This document shows positions 2,734-37,796 of a stretch of 37,796 nucleotides of DNA, piece by piece. Position 1 is the stretch's first letter; every line of letters starts with the position of its first letter. Under the pieces are notes generated by a model. It did no database searches and was not told the origin of the DNA. It saw nothing but the letters and a program-made list of their open reading frames with translations. Made by a program: the position numbers and the translations under genes. Origin of the DNA: a virus (lineage: Duplodnaviria; Heunggongvirae; Uroviricota; Caudoviricetes); IMG/VR virus record IMGVR_UViG_2897375277_000008, positions 1-37,796 of that record. One strand, written 5' to 3'.

Positions 2734-3312
2734 ATGATGCCATTTGCTCGTTATTTCTGCATTTTCATAAACGTTGGTTTGGGAGAAGGCTCTGCATTAC
2801 CGGTTGGGGTGCCTGTTCCGTGGCCTTCAGCCACTCCGCCAACAGGCTGGCTGAAATGCAATGGTGCGGCTTTTTCTGCTGAAGAATACCCGGAACTGGC
2901 AAAGGCTTACCCGACCAATAAATTGCCTGATTTACGCGGTGAATTTATTCGTGGCTGGGATGATGGACGTGGAGTGGATGCGGGGCGAGCCTTGCTAAGT
3001 CTTCAGAATGACTCTTTTGAAGCTCACAGGCATGAGTCCTTTTTTTACGCGGGTATTTCACGCAATGAAACACCATTAAAAAATCTTCCAAGTTCAGACG
3101 AGATGCTGACTTTAAGTTCCACAACTAATGCCTTGTCCCCGGACAGTATTGATGCCACCAATTCGTTAATTGGTAATGATGATTACAACTGTCTGATTGA
3201 AGGAAATAAAAATAACAAACGAACGGCAACGGGGTTGAGTACCAGTATTGTCGGTGCAGCAGAGACACGCCCACGTAATATTTCATTTAATTACATTGTG
3301 AGGGCTGCATGA
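2734..3312 (+). CDS. Alternative tail-fibre C-terminal cassette (silent in this orientation; no own start)
   Basis: ORF contains PVPWPSATPPTGWLKCNGAAFSAEEYPELAKAYPTNKLPDLRGEFIRGWDDGRG, the classic phage tail-fibre C-terminal motif; real coding starts at the crossover site around 2776. Confidence 0.7.
   Translation: MMPFARYFCIFINVGLGEGSALPVGVPVPWPSATPPTGWLKCNGAAFSAEEYPELAKAYPTNKLPDLRGEFIRGWDDGRGVDAGRALLSLQNDSFEAHRHESFFYAGISRNETPLKNLPSSDEMLTLSSTTNALSPDSIDATNSLIGNDDYNCLIEGNKNNKRTATGLSTSIVGAAETRPRNISFNYIVRAA
2762..2787 (+). other. Inversion crossover site (gix/pix-like), left
   Basis: 26-bp site ttttcataaacgTTggtttgggagaa; right half-site and central TT identical to the reverse complement of the site at 4598..4623. 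Confidence 0.7.
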
Positions 3313-3914
3313 TGTATAACGCCATCTTAAATAATAAATTTATTGCCACAAAGGCAGGAGAGATTACCGTTTATAACTATGACAGTGAGACACGGGAGTA
3401 TATTTCTGCATCAACTGAATATCTTGCTGTGGGTGTCGGTATCCCTGCATATTCCTGTTTAGATGCTCCTGGCACACATAAGGTTGGTTATGCAATCTGC
3501 CGTTCGGCAGATTTAAACTCATGGGAATATGTGCCAGACCATCGCGGTGAAGTTGTCTATAACACCGAAACGGGAGAATCAAAAGAAATCACAGCTCCGG
3601 GTGATTACCCTGAAAATACAACCACTATCGTCCCGTTAACGCCATACGATAAATGGGATGGTGAGAAATGGGTGACAGATACTGAGGCACAGCATAGTGC
3701 CGCAGTAGACGCGGCAGAAGCACAGCGCCAGTCGCTGATTGATGCTGCAATGGCTTCCATCAGTCTGATTCAACTGAAATTACAGGCCGGGCGGAAGCTG
3801 ACGCAGGCAGAAACAACCCGACTTAACGCCGTGCTGGATTACATTGACGCGGTGACGGTAACAGATACCAGCACCACGCCGGATGTCATCTGGCCTGAAC
3901 TGCCGGAGGCGTAG
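3309..3914 (+). CDS. Tail fibre assembly protein (alternative cassette)
   Basis: 201-aa ORF directly after the alternative fibre cassette; C-terminus ...[12 protein letters not shown] is Tfa-like. Confidence 0.7.
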
Positions 3915-4314
3915 GCCATTCAATATCGGGTGCTGTTGAAGTATCAACACGCATCAGCAGCACACGGTATTTCTTCCATTTGGTGAGAGTTGAAGTTTCT
4001 TCATCAGTTGCGATATCAGCATCAACAGCATCCTGACGCCAGGATATTTCACTGTCAGCTTTTTCCCGTAATTGGGATTTTTTAACTTCAGCAATAGCTA
4101 TTAATTCCTTTTTGGTCGGCTGAGGAATATCTATCAGTGCTGGTTTTCCATTCAGTGTTCCAATCTGTTTTCCTGGTAGAATATCCGTAAATAACTTTTT
4201 ATGTTCTTCCTCACTGACTATTACACCATCATCAGGCCACAGACCTGATGCCTCAAATTTTTCTTTCTCCGATATGGGGAAAAAGCCATTTGCTTTAGCG
4301 CTCCATACGTACAT
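3886..4314 (-). CDS. Tail fibre assembly protein (expressed cassette)
   Basis: 142-aa ORF after the tail-fibre gene, C-terminus ...[15 protein letters not shown]; converges on and overlaps the other tfa by 29 bp. Confidence 0.7.
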
Positions 4315-4315
4315 A

Positions 4316-4900
4316 TCAATACCCCACCGCTATAATGTCCACATTAAATCCCCCGGGACCTGCCTGCCAGATGCTGGCCCCTGTTAATGATTTTGTTTGA
4401 TGAACAACCGCCACATTTGCTGGCGATTGTGTTTCAGTTGTTACAGTACCGATATCATTCCAGTTAATTGAGATGGAATAGTTCGTTGTTGTAAACGACC
4501 GGGGGAAAGTTATGTGTCTTACATTGGTGCCGACAGGAAATCCAAGATAAACACGCTGAATTATCATTCCTCCAGGTAACATAACCCAGTTAGCACCTTC
4601 TCCCAAACCAAGGTTTTCGAGAGCTGTTTTCACCGTGCCATCCGATTTGATATCGCCAAACGGATTCTTGCGGCTTAACAGCAGCGCACGAAGCGCGGTA
4701 AGCAACTGGTCGTGCCGCGCCTTCTCCAGGCTGGCACCGGAGGCCTCCACCACGCTGCAGAGTTCTTCCTGCAACATGTCAAAGTAGTCATCATCCAGAT
4801 CGGTGGCAGGCGTGCCTGTCTGGGGGTTACCACGGGTAAAACCGTTCTTACCCGGGCCGAACTTATCCTTCTGCGCGGTTTTCGTGTCTATACGATGCAT
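4316..4900 (-). CDS. Tail fibre protein (constant N-terminus joined to current variable C-terminus)
   Basis: 194-aa ORF between the YmfQ-like gene and tfa; crossover site lies inside it at the LENLGLGEG codons. Confidence 0.65.
4598..4623 (-). other. Inversion crossover site (gix/pix-like), right, inside the tail-fibre gene
   Basis: Plus strand ttctcccaaaccAAggttttcgagag; reverse complement shares TTGGTTTGGGAGAA with the left site; both sites encode the shared GLGEG peptide. Confidence 0.7.
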
Positions 4901-4903
4901 GGA

Positions 4904-5488
4904 TTACTCCGGATATTTAAAAATTACGTAGGTATGCGACGGGCAGAGTTTGTTAAGCACACATTCGACGACGGTGTCGCCCCAGACACGCAGCGCGGAA
5001 TCACAGGGATCGCCACATGTCATCCAGGTGGTGTTGGTGGCGGCTGGCATGTTGACCTGCCAGTAATACCGCCATTCCGGCGCATTCACCGCGTCAGTAC
5101 AGGCAGATGAGCAGGTGAAAGTGCTTTTATCGTATCGCGTGATGGTGGCATCCGGTCTGCCCAGGGCAGCAAGCTGTGCAAGGTAAAAATCCTCATTGAT
5201 GCCGCCCGCCAGATTAACCTTCGCATCCAGCCGTTGCTGACGCTGGCGAAGGGTCTGCGTTCCCGCCGGAATACATTCATCCGGCAGGCCGCACAGACGC
5301 TCCCAGCGGTTTATCAGTTCAGTGGTGGTGCGCGGATCCAGCTCCCGCATCAGGGCATCCGCACGCTGATGAACGCGGGTTAATGACGGTGCCGCACCGG
5401 CAATCGCCGGATCGCTGACTGACCACGCCGGACCGGGCGGCAACAGTGCCGACAACAGACGGATATAATCATCGTTTGTCACGTCCAT
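4904..5488 (-). CDS. Tail/baseplate protein, YmfQ-like (Mu gp48-like)
   Basis: 194-aa ORF between baseplate J and tail fibre; family recalled from e14/Mu. Confidence 0.6.
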
Positions 5489-6537
5489 GAAATCGTCCCC
5501 AGAACTGCCAGCTCATTTTTTGCAATGGAGATATTGTCCGCCGGGGCAAGCAACTGATGGCTGTATTCCCCGTTCGCACCGGAAATCGCTTCACTGATAC
5601 GTGACACCTTCAGTTCTCCCTGCGGATAACCATCACGCAGCAGGAACGAACGCAACTCCGCGGTGATGGCGGCTCGTATTTCCGGTGTATCCGGCGTCAC
5701 ACGGATATGAAAATCCACTTTATGCGCCACCGGCCTGAATACATACAAATCAGAGCCTGCCACCGGGGCCAGTGGCTCGATATGTTGTCTTGCCGCCGTT
5801 TCCGTTGATTCTTCCGGAATGGGATTAATCAGGTCACTGCTGGCAATCATCACACCGACAGTTCCCGTTCCCATCCAGTGACGGTATGTCCATGCGCGGG
5901 TAATGCCGGGCACTTCTTTAGCCCAGACGACATAGTCCCCGTCAGCCCCGCCCTGAGGCGTCCAGTAATACCGCTCAATGACGCGGGCGCGCCACGTTTC
6001 CAGCTCTTCAGTATCAAATCCACCTGTCAGGGTATCTGCCACGCCGGAAGACGGCAGACCATTCACCGGCGTGACCAGGATTAATGACGTACCGTCGTCA
6101 GCGTTACCGACCGCGCCTGCACTTGAGCAGGCGATCGGCACGCGCAGGACACCACCGGAGCTGGTTGCATCGGCAGTTGCCGTGTACTGAACCAGGTCAT
6201 CGCGCTGAATAACACTCCCGGCGGTCACCTTCAGGCCATCGCTGACACCTTCCCAGCGCATATACCCGCTGGCAGTCGTGGCCCCCTTGCGCGGACACCG
6301 TTTCATCGCAGCATGTCGCGCCAGCCAGGACTCATCGCACAGGTCAGGCAGCATGTTCATTGCCAGATAATCGATGTACCCGTAAACCGTATGCAGCGCC
6401 GCCGCATACACCTTTGCCCGCACGTCTTCATCCATGCGCCGGAGCGTGTCGCTGACGTCCAGCCTGGCGAATAAATCGTTACGGAGCATACTGATATTTT
6501 CTGCCAGCGTCGGGCGCTGAAATTCACTGTCCGCCAT
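5479..6537 (-). CDS. Baseplate J-like protein
   Basis: 352-aa ORF in baseplate cluster; position and size fit Mu gp47 / P2 gpJ. Confidence 0.7.
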
Positions 6538-22227: not shown

Positions 22228-22264
22228 ATTATCTCCAATAAAAAACCCGCTAAAGCGGGTCTTG

Positions 22265-22507
22265 TTAGCAACTTATTAACATTGCATGGTTATTTAGCAT
22301 CCAGTCGTTTAACTCATTTTCTGCCCATTCTACGTCTATAAGCACTTTGCATAAATTCGCAGGTTTAAGAAGTTCACCTGCTGACTCCCCTGAAGGCCAA
22401 AAATGCACAGCTACATAATTTTGAGTTACATATGTTTTTTTTATAGTTTGTCGTGTTTCGATTGAGACAATCACATCCGATATTTTACATTTTCTTTTTT
22501 TGACCAA
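22265..22507 (-). CDS. Hypothetical protein
   Basis: 80-aa ORF at the edge of an AT-rich stretch. Confidence 0.3.
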   Translation of the reverse strand: MVKKRKCKISDVIVSIETRQTIKKTYVTQNYVAVHFWPSGESAGELLKPANLCKVLIDVEWAENELNDWMLNNHAMLISC

Positions 22508-23064
22508 AAAATCATGAATTCGCTCCCCAACAGCTTCCTTAAAAATAGTTGAGTTAGCATGTTAATCAAATGTTGCAAAAATAAGTTTAAGTTCGCAATT
22601 TAAAGCCTTAGCTTTTGATATTCCTAATTGCATAGCCTTGTGAGCAGCTAGTATATGATTGCTATTTGCCCTGATTACATACTTTTCCATATTCGCTCTC
22701 CCAAAAAATCAGAGGTATATAATAAGAACACAGAAAAATTTATCAATAAAATCAGCAACAAAAGTAGCTCATCAGCATTACTGACTAAAAGTTCTAATAT
22801 CATTAACAAACGAGTATTGCACTGTACACTTTTTCAAAACGGACAAGTCTTTCAGATACTCACATCGACAACCAATAAAGAACACCAATTGTACTCATCT
22901 CGCGTCAATTCATTGTAGCCTGTGAGCCTATGCTTTCTGATCACAACGCTACCAGTATTATCGCTTCAAGCAGGAATGAACTCCGTATTTTAGCATCCAA
23001 AGGAATTAGCTGTCCCCAAACAGGGTATTAGAACGTAATAATATCACTTTACTAATATAATCAG

Positions 23065-23989: not shown

Positions 23990-24316
23990 TTACTCCTTAG
24001 AGCCACCAAACTTGTTACCGATTACTCTCATTGCAGCCCCACGAATAGCATCGACACCGATCAGCCCCACCCCACCACCAATGGCAACAGATAGTGATTT
24101 AGGCCATCCGACATACTCAAGAGCGGATGCAAAAGTCAGCGTCAGAGCGCCACAGAGTAGAATTTCGAGTGTTTTTCGCTTCCAGCCGCCACCACCGCCA
24201 AAATAGGCAATACGTAAACCAGCCATAACAATCGACATAATCACTGCGCCCAGCGGTGTGTCTCCACGCCACCAGCTCTGGACCAACTCCAGCCAGGTAT
24301 TTGGGTTATGAGGCAT
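23990..24316 (-). CDS. Putative holin
   Basis: 108-aa ORF with hydrophobic segments and charged C-terminus immediately upstream of the endolysin. Confidence 0.6.
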   Translation of the reverse strand: MPHNPNTWLELVQSWWRGDTPLGAVIMSIVMAGLRIAYFGGGGGWKRKTLEILLCGALTLTFASALEYVGWPKSLSVAIGGGVGLIGVDAIRGAAMRVIGNKFGGSKE

Positions 24317-24468
24317 TTGTAGTTATCTCTCACCTCGCTGATACAGCAGGTGCAAATTGAGGGAACATCATGTACCGCAAATCAGAAGCGGAAACGTCAA
24401 AGAAGCCGAGCCAATGGATAACTGCGGGATAGACCAGGCCCAACGAATCCCTAGGCCCAGAAACGACA

Positions 24469-24490
24469 AAACCCGCTCAGCGGCGGGTTT
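24469..24490 (-). terminator. Hairpin terminator upstream of the holin gene
   Basis: Stem aaacccgc/gcgggttt with 6-nt loop; on the minus strand followed by UUUUGUCGUUU. Confidence 0.5.
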
Positions 24491-24535
24491 AAGTTGTGTG
24501 GCGAAGTAACCACTCTTAACACGATACAATACTTT

Positions 24536-24565
24536 TTGCGTACGCGTTAGTGAAAAATATATACT
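24536..24565 (+). promoter_or_regulatory. Candidate sigma70 promoter for the two-gene insert
   Basis: TTGCGT (24536..24541), 18-bp spacer, TATACT (24560..24565); AAGGAA Shine-Dalgarno before the ATG at 24645. Confidence 0.35.
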
Positions 24566-24644
24566 ATCAAGCACAATCAGTTAACCTTTGGTTCTGCTGA
24601 ACTAAAAACAGCAATCAGTATTAGTGCTCGTATAAGGAACAGAT

Positions 24645-25580
24645 ATGCTCTTGGGAGATAATGAACGTTTCATGATCAAATGCCAGGTTACTTTAAAGAA
24701 GTATCCTAATGACGCACCTGACATGCCTTTAGTAAACTGTATTCCTGTTTTAAAAAATCGCTATAACAAAGGAGAAGCTGTTTACGAATTAAACAAAGGA
24801 CGTTCTGTCATAAGATTGCTATCCATAAAAGACGATGAAAATTACCTGAAATTGCTTTTTCAATATATAAATAAAGATGCTTCTGATCCCGCCTTTTCCA
24901 ACATAAAAACTGGTGAAACCAGAATTGAGAAAAAGCAAAATGATGAAGGTATGGGGTACTCTGCTCATGTGCTTATCAAAAAAAGACCGAGCGACTCATC
25001 ATTCCAAGATTGTTATGAGGCAATTTTAGAAGAAGTTCCGGGCATTACCAGAGGTTTATTAGCCCAAGCTTTAACTTATTTCCTGCGAGAAAATAATTTT
25101 TCCTTTATCCGTTCAGGAGGGAAAAAAGAACTTAAGTGCAGACCTATTTTCGACATTGATTTTTTGGCTGCAATAACACTTGAGCAATCTCTATCCACTG
25201 GTTATTTATGTGGACTTACTGCTACTCGTCGCTTTAAAGATAACTCTTTAGATGATGATGGCACAGTAATGGTTGAAGAAGAAACACTAAAGCTATCAAC
25301 AAAAATACGTCGCGGAGAGGGTGCAATTAAGGCGATTAAGTCTGCATATGACAAACTTCGTGGTAGAAAGTATACAATGTTAAGAATTTCTTATAAAGAC
25401 AAAAATAAACGCGTTTCATCAGATCTTGTTTCCATCGGAAAAGAAATGAGCTTACAGGAACTCGCAACAGCACAATTGGCACAACGTGAAAAAGCAGTGT
25501 TGGCATCAACAATTGCCGTTTGCCAAACAGCATTTCACGAAGAACTTCTCGCAAAAATGCAAAACTTTATGTTAAAGTGA
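24645..25580 (+). CDS. Hypothetical 311-aa soluble protein, first gene of the AT-rich insert
   Basis: Long ORF with AAGGAA Shine-Dalgarno; no Walker, HNH or other motif I recognise; codon usage visibly AT-rich; opposite strand to the late operon. Confidence 0.7.
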   Translation: MLLGDNERFMIKCQVTLKKYPNDAPDMPLVNCIPVLKNRYNKGEAVYELNKGRSVIRLLSIKDDENYLKLLFQYINKDASDPAFSNIKTGETRIEKKQNDEGMGYSAHVLIKKRPSDSSFQDCYEAILEEVPGITRGLLAQALTYFLRENNFSFIRSGGKKELKCRPIFDIDFLAAITLEQSLSTGYLCGLTATRRFKDNSLDDDGTVMVEEETLKLSTKIRRGEGAIKAIKSAYDKLRGRKYTMLRISYKDKNKRVSSDLVSIGKEMSLQELATAQLAQREKAVLASTIAVCQTAFHEELLAKMQNFMLK

Positions 25581-25612
25581 AGGCATGGAAAACCTGTCAA
25601 AAGGAGGCATAT

Positions 25613-26182
25613 ATGTATGTTTTATCTAAGGTTTTTACACCTATAGACTACCTACGCATAAAGCATCCTGAGAAGCGATTTTTTGACTGGGTTTTACCCA
25701 TTTTCACTGCTGCAATTATTACTTTATCCATCTATTACTTACCGAAAACCATCTCACTTCTCGGGAAGGATAGTCTTGTGTCTTTAGTAAACGGGATACT
25801 TCAAATACTATCTGGTTTTTACATTGCATCTATGGCTGCAGTTGCAACCTTCAGTAAGGATGGTATGGATGAAGTTATGCATGGCATACCTCCGGTATTA
25901 AAAGGTAAAAAACTTACAAGGCGTAAATTCCTCACTTATCTATTTGGTTATTTAGCGTTTATGAGCATCGCGCTGTATTTCGTTGGAGGAGCACTTCAAC
26001 TAACCAGTGCAAGCATCAAGGAATTACACCTTTCATCATATCCACTAGTGAAATCATTACTTTTGTTTATTTATTTAAGTACCATATGCAACATTATATA
26101 CACAACGGCATTAGGTATGTATTTTATGATAGACAAAATGCATGATGAAAAATCGAAACTTATAATTAAAGATAAAGAATGA
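25613..26182 (+). CDS. Hypothetical 189-aa membrane protein with four predicted TM helices
   Basis: Start set at ATG 25613 (AAGGAGG 5 nt upstream; track ORF begins 25520). Four hydrophobic segments of about 20 to 28 aa and a Lys-rich tail. Confidence 0.65.
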   Translation: MYVLSKVFTPIDYLRIKHPEKRFFDWVLPIFTAAIITLSIYYLPKTISLLGKDSLVSLVNGILQILSGFYIASMAAVATFSKDGMDEVMHGIPPVLKGKKLTRRKFLTYLFGYLAFMSIALYFVGGALQLTSASIKELHLSSYPLVKSLLLFIYLSTICNIIYTTALGMYFMIDKMHDEKSKLIIKDKE

Positions 26183-26206
26183 GGCTTACGCCTCATTCTT
26201 TTTAGA
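26175..26206 (+). terminator. Intrinsic terminator between the convergent insert and Q gene
   Basis: Perfect 11-bp stem aagaatgaggc/gcctcattctt, loop ttac, then T-run; overlaps the insert gene stop and the Q stop codon. Confidence 0.7.
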
Positions 26207-26564
26207 ACTCAATCAAACAAATACATCCTTCAACAAACCCCAAGGCAGTCTGCAATTTTTTCCTAACTGTGCCATCTGAACATCTTCTCTTCTTGGCAAT
26301 AGTGCGTAATGAGATACCAATGACAAAGTGAGCTATGATTAGCTCATATTCCTCTGGTTTATACTTTCTCAACCGAGCCACACAACTGTCTATCATAATG
26401 CCTTCGTCATCATCACACTGAACCCGGGACTTTTTGCCATGAGGTAAAAGCCCCTTGAAGCCTGCAGCTATCGGCTGCCAGTCCACGCCACTGTTATCTG
26501 CTGCAGCCCATGCTCCCCAGCGGTCCAATACTTCATACATATCACGCATCAACTTTCTCCACAA
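26202..26564 (-). CDS. Late antiterminator Q (QuuD-like small Q family)
   Basis: 120-aa ORF with ...VLDRWGAWAAADN...IAAGFKGL...; matches my recollection of DLP12 QuuD; sits upstream of the lysis genes. Confidence 0.7.
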   Translation of the reverse strand: MWRKLMRDMYEVLDRWGAWAAADNSGVDWQPIAAGFKGLLPHGKKSRVQCDDDEGIMIDSCVARLRKYKPEEYELIIAHFVIGISLRTIAKKRRCSDGTVRKKLQTALGFVEGCICLIEF

Positions 26565-35924: not shown

Positions 35925-37796
35925 TTAAACCACGATTCCTAAATGGCATGGTTGCTCACCTTCAAGAGAGGCTCTCATTAAGGTCAGGAATTGGGATAAA
36001 TTATTTCTAAAATCAGAACCACTATCTTCCGCCATTCCTGGAGCTAACGAACTTACTAATAAAGCAGGTGTGATAGGTCTTGTTCCGTAAATACTATATT
36101 TCTCATGATGGAAATGACGAGTCTCGCAAGATTCACTTGGATTTACAATCATCAGCCCAGAAGACAAACTTTTTCCAGTATTTTTTTCATGTATACCATG
36201 AAGGTATTTCATAGTGAGTTCGGGGAGGTAATGTGTAAACGCTTTTTTACTGGTAGTATACTTTGCATCTAGGATTAATTGCCTTTGTTCACCCGTAGGC
36301 GTTGAAATGCAAACTATCATGTCTGGTGATCGATTAGCATTAGGACCTTGCTGCCCTCTAGGCTTCAATTTACCTTTCACGGTGTCTAGAGTCCACCCTT
36401 CGGAGTTAATTAGGGAAGCCCCAAAAGAGCTTGCATGATCATGAGTCCAAATTTTCATCTCATAGATAAGCTGTACAGTAAAACCTCCCCAGTCATACTC
36501 AAAATTATTCCGTTCTATTACAGGGCCATTCACTAGCTCAAACTTCATGCCCAATAACCGTACGTTGTCAAAGTGATACTTAATTAAAAATAATAGGTAG
36601 TATTCAAAAAGTTTTGGGATACTTTGTATCGAAAATAGCTCTTCCTGTACGCTCCAATCAGGTGCGCCGAATCTATGCCAAGCAATTATTTTATGAAAAA
36701 CCTTCTGATAATGAAGGTTGTATCTAGCTTTTCTTGTGAATTGCGGAGTGCCAATGATAATATTAGTTACAGGAACCCGCTCATCAAAAGTTCGTTTCAA
36801 ACGCTGTAGATTAATAATCAATTCTTTACATCGTGAAACTTTATTTTTATTTACAACCTTTGCAAACTTACTTAGCTGTGCAAAAAATGAAATATACCCG
36901 GATATGCTCGACTGTTCACGAATTCTGGAAGAAGGATACTCTTCAAGCCGACTCAAGATCTCCGATGCAGCACGCATAAGGGATACTATAAAGCCATGGA
37001 CAACTTGATTTTCATAAATATTCAAATCCTCTTTTAGATGATTTTCTAATATTCGTTCCGATGAATAATATGTGCCATCTAGTTCCAATATTGCGCGGGT
37101 CTGATCATTAACTGGATAAAGGTTGTCAGAGTTTTCTGAAATCCAAGCTAAAGTGGTGTCATCGATAACAGAGTTTTCAGATACTACGACAACTTTAGTC
37201 ACTGGTGTAAGTTTTGCGATTGGCCTGGAATAGATATTTGGAATCTCGGTCATTAACAATAAAACATTTCGTTCGAGTTGTTCAATCAAAAAGCTAACCG
37301 ATCTTTCTCCTTCTTTGAATCCTGCATTTATACGAGTTACTCTAAAAAATGCTGCTAGAGCATCATTATCATGACACGCTAAGAAATCGAGCATTTTTTC
37401 TGCCCGTTCAGCATTCAATTTTTTGGCAAATACTTCAACCGGAGAATATTGTTCAATAATAACTCTTTCGCCAACTCCATCGATTTTCGTTACTATCGAT
37501 AGCTCTGCCATACCATAATAGTTATGAAAAAAGCATTCGTATGTTGATCGATATATAGATTTTGGTTTCCATTCGTAAATCCATAGGCCATCGTATTCTT
37601 TGCTAGAAGTTATTCCTATTTCATTTTCATGAAGACATAAAAAAACATCATCCAACGGAACAGATGCTTCCAGCCTAAACTCTAGAGCTTCGTCTTCCAG
37701 AAAATAAATCTGATTAGAGGACTGAAGACCAAAGGGAGTCAACCCTATCTCTAGACCACTTCTCCTGCCGTTTATTATCTTCGCAGTAAACCTCAT
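35925..37796 (-). CDS. McrC-like PD-(D/E)xK nuclease family protein (start codon at window edge)
   Basis: 623-aa AT-rich ORF; C-terminal ...SPDMIVCISTPTGEQRQLILDAKYT... parallels the McrC catalytic region (…DITIRSSEKILIVDAKYY…) as I recall it. Confidence 0.6.
   Translation of the reverse strand: MRFTAKIINGRRSGLEIGLTPFGLQSSNQIYFLEDEALEFRLEASVPLDDVFLCLHENEIGITSSKEYDGLWIYEWKPKSIYRSTYECFFHNYYGMAELSIVTKIDGVGERVIIEQYSPVEVFAKKLNAERAEKMLDFLACHDNDALAAFFRVTRINAGFKEGERSVSFLIEQLERNVLLLMTEIPNIYSRPIAKLTPVTKVVVVSENSVIDDTTLAWISENSDNLYPVNDQTRAILELDGTYYSSERILENHLKEDLNIYENQVVHGFIVSLMRAASEILSRLEEYPSSRIREQSSISGYISFFAQLSKFAKVVNKNKVSRCKELIINLQRLKRTFDERVPVTNIIIGTPQFTRKARYNLHYQKVFHKIIAWHRFGAPDWSVQEELFSIQSIPKLFEYYLLFLIKYHFDNVRLLGMKFELVNGPVIERNNFEYDWGGFTVQLIYEMKIWTHDHASSFGASLINSEGWTLDTVKGKLKPRGQQGPNANRSPDMIVCISTPTGEQRQLILDAKYTTSKKAFTHYLPELTMKYLHGIHEKNTGKSLSSGLMIVNPSESCETRHFHHEKYSIYGTRPITPALLVSSLAPGMAEDSGSDFRNNLSQFLTLMRASLEGEQPCHLGIVV

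Follow-up and report, generated by a model that had tools for sequence, protein, structure and literature searches.

The DNA analysed here, called the window below, is the 37,796 nucleotide sequence of the IMG/VR virus record IMGVR_UViG_2897375277_000008 and belongs to an Escherichia coli prophage. Between the genes for the antiterminator Q and a lambda-type holin it contains a 1.66 kb cargo insert with two genes, termed A and B in the following, and this pair is probably a two-gene Rex-type phage-defence module of the PDC-M53/RexABpp family that is cargo of an e14-like E. coli prophage. With a query spanning holin to Q, megablast showed that the homology to thousands of other prophages ends at ~24553 and ~26211, nearly the limits of 24536 and 26206 given in a preliminary description of the sequence. 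The guanine-cytosine (GC) content of positions 24554-26210 is 0.36, compared with 0.509 for the whole window and 0.46-0.58 for the flanks, which bears out the AT-richness that had been noted by eye. Both genes run opposite to the late genes, that is Q, holin and then lysozyme and Rz, again as described before.

Protein A is soluble, with an isoelectric point of 9.1, and contains no hydrophobic segment. Its basic character is compatible with the putative DNA binding. Gene B follows A on the same strand after a gap of 32 nucleotides. It is contained in a longer open reading frame (ORF, 25520-26182), and the ATG at 25613 was taken as its start because the Shine-Dalgarno sequence AGGAGG, the start annotated by the Prokaryotic Genome Annotation Pipeline (PGAP) in E. 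coli H22 and the N-termini of the homologues agree on this position. Protein B contains four hydrophobic segments, and the AlphaFold2 model (pLDDT, the predicted local distance difference test, 83.1) shows four long helices at residues 19-42, 55-79, 103-130 and 144-177. Lysine and arginine residues concentrate in the N-terminus (five), the loop between transmembrane helices 2 and 3 (seven) and the C-terminus (five), with two and one in the other loops, and for this reason B is assigned a topology with both termini inside. The proposal of a soluble first protein and a second protein with four transmembrane helices is thus upheld by hydropathy, charge distribution and predicted structure. In the window both genes are full-length ORFs with strong Shine-Dalgarno sites, which had also been pointed out before, and they keep all near-invariant residues of their families. 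The best-conserved part of the whole two-gene system is the second transmembrane helix of B, and in the A family the near-invariant polar residues are R8, R93, E101, H108, E129 and D203. The top-conserved motif of the A family, SDPAF..TG..R...K..EG.G.SAH, corresponds to residues 80-108 of A (window 24882-24968) and overlaps the sole low-confidence segments of the AlphaFold2 model (residues 80-85 and 90-102).

Searches with the PADLOC-DB profiles identified both proteins as members of a catalogued family. Window A matches five PDC-M53A models, the best with an E-value of 3.5e-17, and window B matches PDC-M53B with 2.7e-39, the alignment covering positions 2-186 of the 188 in the profile. The preliminary description had suggested profile searches as a check and these were successful with PADLOC but not with Pfam; neither the Pfam nor the NCBIfam profiles matched window A or B, and in PHROGs both proteins match families of unknown function and nothing else. 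PDCs are putative PADLOC defence candidates, which were found by "guilt-by-embedding" and are mostly without validation (PMC12988326). The name "PDC-M53" was not found in any paper in our literature search.

An experimental anchor for the family comes from Pseudomonas putida. Rosendahl et al. (Sci Rep, January 2026) reported that PP_5643 and PP_5644 of the P. putida prophage P1 constitute a phage defence system, RexABpp, which needs both genes (PMC12894663). In the same study RexApp was found to bind DNA non-specifically, and its overexpression resulted in growth arrest and membrane permeabilisation that depended on RexBpp (PP_5644), a protein with four transmembrane helices. Without RexBpp the overexpression of RexApp was harmless, with RexBpp it was toxic, and suppressors mapped to RexBpp (PMC12894663). 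The two sequences were retrieved by means of a 20-mer backed by two primers from the supplementary tables of Rosendahl et al., which occurs exactly once in IMG/VR, on contig IMGVR_UViG_637000222_000004. The computed mass of the recovered RexApp with a His6 tag is 37,467 Da, compared with the published 37.5 kDa, and the recovered RexBpp has six of the seven published residues (W25, F35, L55, S145, G153 and Y181). Mass and residues agree with the paper and verify that the ORFs on this contig are PP_5643 and PP_5644. PP_5643 was absent among the homologues of a Pseudomonas family member, and a residue fingerprint in which five of the seven RexBpp residues were located in the B family at an offset of -27 was rejected as a coincidence: the real sequence aligns at an offset of about 0, with its start one codon upstream.

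RexApp matches the same PDC-M53A models as window A, the best with an E-value of 8.4e-157, and RexBpp matches PDC-M53B with 3.3e-70. Hidden Markov models (HMMs) built around the families of window A and window B match RexApp with 2.8e-35 and RexBpp with 3e-31. In BLASTP comparisons, the identity of window A to RexApp is 21.8% (E 3.5e-8) and that of window B to RexBpp 34.6% (E 1.6e-19), and RexApp retains seven of the ten near-invariant residues of the A family. Because the RexABpp proteins match both the PDC-M53 models and the A/B HMMs, the window pair belongs to one family with PDC-M53 and RexABpp. The statement that neither protein could be placed in a known family is therefore corrected, as is the view of the pair as an undescribed system, since PDC-M53 is catalogued and its P. 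putida member was characterised in January 2026 (PMC12894663). The central idea of the preliminary description, a RexA/RexB-like soluble sensor with a four-helix membrane effector as prophage defence, is strongly supported by the homology to the validated RexABpp. The two pairs differ in host, Pseudomonas as opposed to E. coli, and in location, since RexABpp lies downstream of a cI-like repressor whereas the window pair occupies the Q-holin interval in the opposite orientation.

The family is large. An exhaustive profile search with a threshold of E <= 1e-3 returned 754 representative clusters for A, nearly all with proteins of 305-330 amino acids and with end-to-end matches, whereas a word-indexed search had before given just 39. 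Counted at 50% identity, PDC-M53 alone has no fewer than 754 clusters, and these are distributed across the Proteobacteria. A common Pfam domain was not found among 61 diverse members of the A family.

To determine whether the two genes occur together, as the preliminary description had proposed to check, loci were collected by way of B, the better conserved protein. The species-representative genomes contain 31 loci, in Gamma- and Alphaproteobacteria, Desulfobacterota and one member of the Trueperaceae. At all 29 of these for which upstream DNA is present, an ORF of 268-388 amino acids on the same strand abuts B, and all of these ORFs match the A profile (E 3e-160 to 3e-8). On viral and prophage contigs all 68 evaluable loci have an A homologue that lies upstream of B and shares its strand. 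A thus precedes B in each of the 97 evaluable loci of both sets. A directly adjoins B everywhere but in locus L094, where A is interrupted by ~1.6 kb; the other exceptions examined, L025 and L087, are truncations at contig edges, and a strict adjacency filter was passed by 96 of 101 loci. Checks centred on A at four more loci revealed the same pairing. The flanks of 81 non-redundant loci contain mainly genes for cI-type repressors (Peptidase_S24/HTH_3) or genes for Q, DUF968, holin and lysozyme. These are classic positions of prophage cargo, which speaks for a defence module. In the Pasteurella multocida prophages L120-L122 (positions 3239-5545) a cI-type repressor gene (229 amino acids), A (320 amino acids) and B (181 amino acids) follow each other on one strand with a cro-like gene divergent from them, which is the layout of lambda cI-rexA-rexB.

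The cargo status of the pair is also evident from the prophages related to the one in the window. In E. coli H22 the insert is part of an e14-like prophage integrated at icd, where A and B are annotated as hypothetical. Insert DNA is present in 4 of 5,426 complete E. coli genomes, the four copies being at least 99.8% identical, and it is absent from deposited phage genomes. In sister E. coli prophages (L110-L115) the slot between Q and holin contains other cargo, always oriented against the late genes and directly next to the 3´ end of Q, which agrees with the suggestion that this is a cargo site. The cargo found there includes a KAP NTPase, a relative of PifA and QatA that corresponds to PADLOC PDC-S20 (1e-175), a serine protease of the SDH type with Clp fold, and single hypothetical genes. 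Two sister prophages have a soluble protein together with a multi-transmembrane protein, L110 at 907-2237 (273 and 161 amino acids) and L114 at 1342-2803 (308 and 182 amino acids, with an overlap of 14 nucleotides). Neither of these pairs has a PADLOC or Pfam match, and they were rejected as A/B homologues since they do not match the A/B HMMs; more Rex-like systems, or analogues of them, may thus have escaped recognition here. In this prophage group, then, cargo is swapped in the slot from Q to holin, and the defence-like part of it, such as the KAP NTPase, speaks for a defence module in the window as well.

The comparison with lambda Rex (PF15969/PF15968; PDB 8TWQ) shows the same architecture. 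RexA and RexB are likewise a soluble protein followed by a small protein with four transmembrane helices, encoded by one operon of a prophage and expressed in the lysogen, and the presumed logic, a sensor that activates a membrane effector, is the same. Window A is 32 residues and window B 45 residues longer than the lambda counterpart, and the lambda genes follow cI in the immunity operon, a position that the window pair does not share, whereas some A/B relatives do occupy the cI-rexA-rexB position. In structure, protein A comes closest to lambda RexA; its predicted fold is RexA/RdgC-like and DNA-clamp-like, and the similarity is remote. The direct sequence homology to lambda RexA and RexB that was also considered was rejected, as no link at the sequence level was found with hhalign or with the Rex models of Pfam and PADLOC. 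Searches of the PDB sequences with A profiles returned nothing meaningful. In Foldseek searches against the viral models in BFVD, the A model matched four uncharacterised siphovirus proteins, RexA not among them, and the B model had no viral match at an E-value of 0.001 or better, RexB included. The best matches in BFVD, A0A8S5S8L2 for A (E 1.3e-9) and A0A8S5S8H0 for B (non-significant), are both from Siphoviridae sp. ctylc9; this model comparison suggests that the genome of this uncultured siphovirus, a free phage, encodes a strongly diverged A/B pair.

Other known systems resemble the pair in part. RdgC of E. coli (PDB 2OWL) is a recombination-associated DNA-binding ring encoded by a single housekeeping gene without a membrane partner, and window A has no sequence or Pfam match to it. 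Kiwa (KwaA/KwaB) also combines a protein with four transmembrane helices and a soluble protein of ~300 amino acids, but it is defined by a KwaB with DUF4868 and the membrane protein KwaA upstream, and the window pair has neither that domain nor that order. The actinobacteriophage pairs Sbash gp30/31, CarolAnn gp44/43 and Butters gp30/31 are two-gene exclusion systems of temperate phages with a soluble and a membrane protein. Their hosts are actinobacteria, and their relation to Rex is mostly structural or architectural.

Several observations weigh against the assignment as a Rex-type defence module. The A/B allele is rare in E. coli (4 of 5,426 complete genomes), and the candidate promoter for A and B, whose expression in the lysogen is putative, is weak. 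Window A has no match to the RexA models of Pfam or PADLOC at E-values up to 1, and window B has none to their RexB models, while in control searches lambda RexA matched Pfam with 1e-97 and PADLOC with 9e-110 and lambda RexB matched Pfam with 9e-92. The Pfam RexA/RexB models do not match P. putida RexApp and RexBpp either. The hhalign comparisons, made with single sequences and profiles of four sequences, gave probabilities of 0.7% for A with RexA and 0.2% for B with RexB; the lambda RexA family is too narrow for a deep profile (seven viral contigs and 19 phage records with 46-100% identity). In addition, a two-hybrid assay detected no interaction between RexApp and RexBpp (PMC12894663). Finally, with identities of 22% for A and 35% for B to the validated pair, the trigger, the spectrum and even the activity of the E. 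coli pair may differ.

The homology with RexABpp and the analogy with lambda Rex suggest how the module most likely works. A is a basic cytoplasmic protein with a RexA/RdgC-like fold and would probably act as a dimer that clamps DNA without sequence specificity. If the genes are expressed from the prophage, A would detect a cue specific for infection, either an intermediate of phage replication or recombination or a complex of a phage protein with DNA. It would then activate B, a small inner-membrane protein with four passes that is probably an oligomeric channel or pore. Active B would impair membrane integrity and energy supply, and the resulting growth arrest of the infected E. coli cell would abort the infection.

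It might also be possible that A and B mainly serve the life cycle of the prophage, with A binding DNA or the repressor and modulating induction and with B as an accessory. Lambda RexA without RexB tilts the lysis-lysogeny switch towards lytic growth (PMC11077077); this second role of RexA is a precedent, many A/B relatives adjoin cI-type repressors, and A has a predicted RexA-like fold. The module in the window, however, is at a distance from the immunity region and occupies a slot where unrelated cargo is exchanged. Furthermore, the strict coupling of A and B argues for joint action, and defence by the validated homologue depends on both genes (PMC12894663). We therefore regard a mainly regulatory role as unlikely, and note that the two roles are not mutually exclusive. 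A reversed logic is known from the mycobacteriophage Butters pair gp30/gp31: here the soluble A would be the toxic effector and B would sequester it until infection. The Discussion of PMC12894663 lists such a Rex-like variant, and the strongly conserved polar residues R8, R93, E101, H108, E129 and D203 would be in line with an effector function of A. The toxicity of RexApp only in the presence of RexBpp and the location of the suppressors in RexBpp (PMC12894663) point in the other direction, as does the second transmembrane helix of B, whose conservation is expected of an effector, and we consider the reversed arrangement quite improbable.

A small membrane protein with a partner, located on a mobile element as prophage cargo, could also be an addiction (toxin-antitoxin-like) module, or it could exclude superinfecting phages by blocking the entry of DNA instead of aborting the infection after entry. 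Membrane superinfection exclusion proteins are common in prophages. In the homologous system, however, the effector is activated from inside by a DNA-binding partner, and a cytoplasmic A with a fold predicted to be DNA-clamp-like would be of no obvious use to an entry blocker, which makes this explanation very improbable. The last possibility is that the cargo is inactive or decaying, its ORFs being intact but silent or non-functional in the host. The weak promoter match, the rarity of the allele in E. coli and the premature stop in a neighbouring cargo gene of the window would be expected in this case. Against it stand the full length of both ORFs, their strong Shine-Dalgarno sites, the retention of all near-invariant family residues and the near identity of the copies in the four E. 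coli genomes, and of all explanations it is the one to which we attach hardly any probability.

The features of the locus are listed in Table 1. The perfect terminator hairpin reported before is present where the convergent genes B and Q end, with a stem of 12 bp instead of the 11 bp claimed and a loop of 4 nucleotides (AAAGAATGAGGC-TTAC-GCCTCATTCTTT), and it is a putative bidirectional terminator that would be usable on both strands. The promoter TTGCGT-N18-TATACT that had been proposed for A and B does exist in the sequence but is weak: its -35 element agrees with the consensus at just three of six bases, and the site was not called by a consensus promoter scan. Promoter-like sites are not enriched in the insert region (2 compared with 5.8 +/- 2.9 in shuffled sequences). 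The junction alignment revealed that the candidate promoter straddles the insert boundary, with the -35 element in conserved backbone DNA and the -10 element in insert-specific DNA.

Table 1. Features of the cargo locus, with positions in the window.
Feature	Position	Strand	Basis
Gene A, 311 amino acids, ATG start; soluble protein (isoelectric point 9.1), PDC-M53A/RexApp family, putative DNA-binding sensor	24645-25580	+	
Gene B, 189 amino acids; inner-membrane protein with four transmembrane helices, PDC-M53B/RexBpp family, putative membrane-permeabilising effector	25613-26182	+	
AT-rich cargo insert	~24553-~26211	.	megablast breakpoints, junction alignment, GC values
Q antiterminator gene, right neighbour	26202-26564	-	PF06530 6.4e-46; phrog_79
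Lambda-family holin gene, left neighbour	23990-24316	-	PF05106 5.7e-25; phrog_126
Shine-Dalgarno sequence of gene A, AAGGA	24634-24638	+	6 nucleotides 5´ of ATG; read in sequence
Shine-Dalgarno sequence of gene B, AGGAGG	25602-25607	+	5 nucleotides 5´ of ATG 25613; read in sequence
Hairpin between convergent stops of B (26182) and Q (26202)	26174-26201	.	terminator scan and sequence
Candidate promoter TTGCGT-N18-TATACT	24536-24565	+	present in sequence; weak
Conserved block with terminator-like hairpin, putative late leader	24465-24552	-	alignment of seven prophages, terminator scan, megablast

Adjacent to the insert, on its holin side, the block 24465-24552 is invariant in all seven prophages compared, whatever the cargo or the downstream gene. 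It contains a hairpin at 24490-24469 on the minus strand that is followed by a T-rich tail, and the promoter hexamers in it gave no confident assignment. Its conservation and hairpin suggest that the block is the late promoter, leader and terminator region cognate to Q. If this is the case, the cargo would sit between Q and the site at which Q acts, and it would be outside the late transcript.

Comparison of the window with the prophage of E. coli H22 revealed further differences away from the insert. A second AT-rich stretch (22230-23064, GC 0.31-0.36) is located between an HNH endonuclease gene and Rz. A hypothetical gene of 141 amino acids that is intact in E. coli H22 has a premature stop at codon 43 in the window, which leaves the ORFs 22562-22690 and 22265-22507, and 220 nucleotides of the window (22806-23025) are missing from E. 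coli H22. Positions 2769-3074 are inverted relative to the H22 prophage while the remainder is collinear, which fits the invertible tail-fibre segment of an e14-like prophage. Between integrase and icd, E. coli H22 encodes a DUF2357 protein and a hypothetical protein of 848 amino acids, a region that corresponds to window positions ~35925-37796 (L001:31390-33261) and beyond. These genes at the attachment-site end may be another defence-type cargo.

Within a catalogued family that has one validated member, the window pair is a divergent representative from E. coli, and an activity of its own is proposed by homology. The new findings are modest and concern the identity of PDC-M53 with RexABpp, the family size, and the swap slot between Q and the late leader with its unrecognised pairs. 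The link between PDC-M53 and RexABpp was not found in any paper in our literature search, and Rosendahl et al. do not mention PADLOC (PMC12894663). A wider reading, which we put forward tentatively and hold to be less probable than not by some distance, is that systems with a Rex-type DNA-clamp sensor and an effector with four transmembrane helices make up a superfamily far larger and more varied than the "five described systems" of the literature, that the L110 and L114 pairs may belong to it, and that A may have a catalytic or ligand site. If the motif at residues 80-108, for which disorder is predicted, together with R93, E101, H108, E129 and D203 serves A in ligand binding or catalysis, the function of A would go beyond clamping DNA.

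With these results, two "hypothetical proteins" of E. coli prophages become a testable Rex-type defence module. No host is genetically better suited than E. coli to the Rex problem, now 70 years old, with its questions of which cue the sensor detects and how it opens the membrane effector. The interval from Q to the late leader in these E. coli prophages is a good place to find further defence systems. The size of the family (754 representative clusters) and its distribution across the Proteobacteria imply that Rex-like immunity is far commoner than the few described cases.

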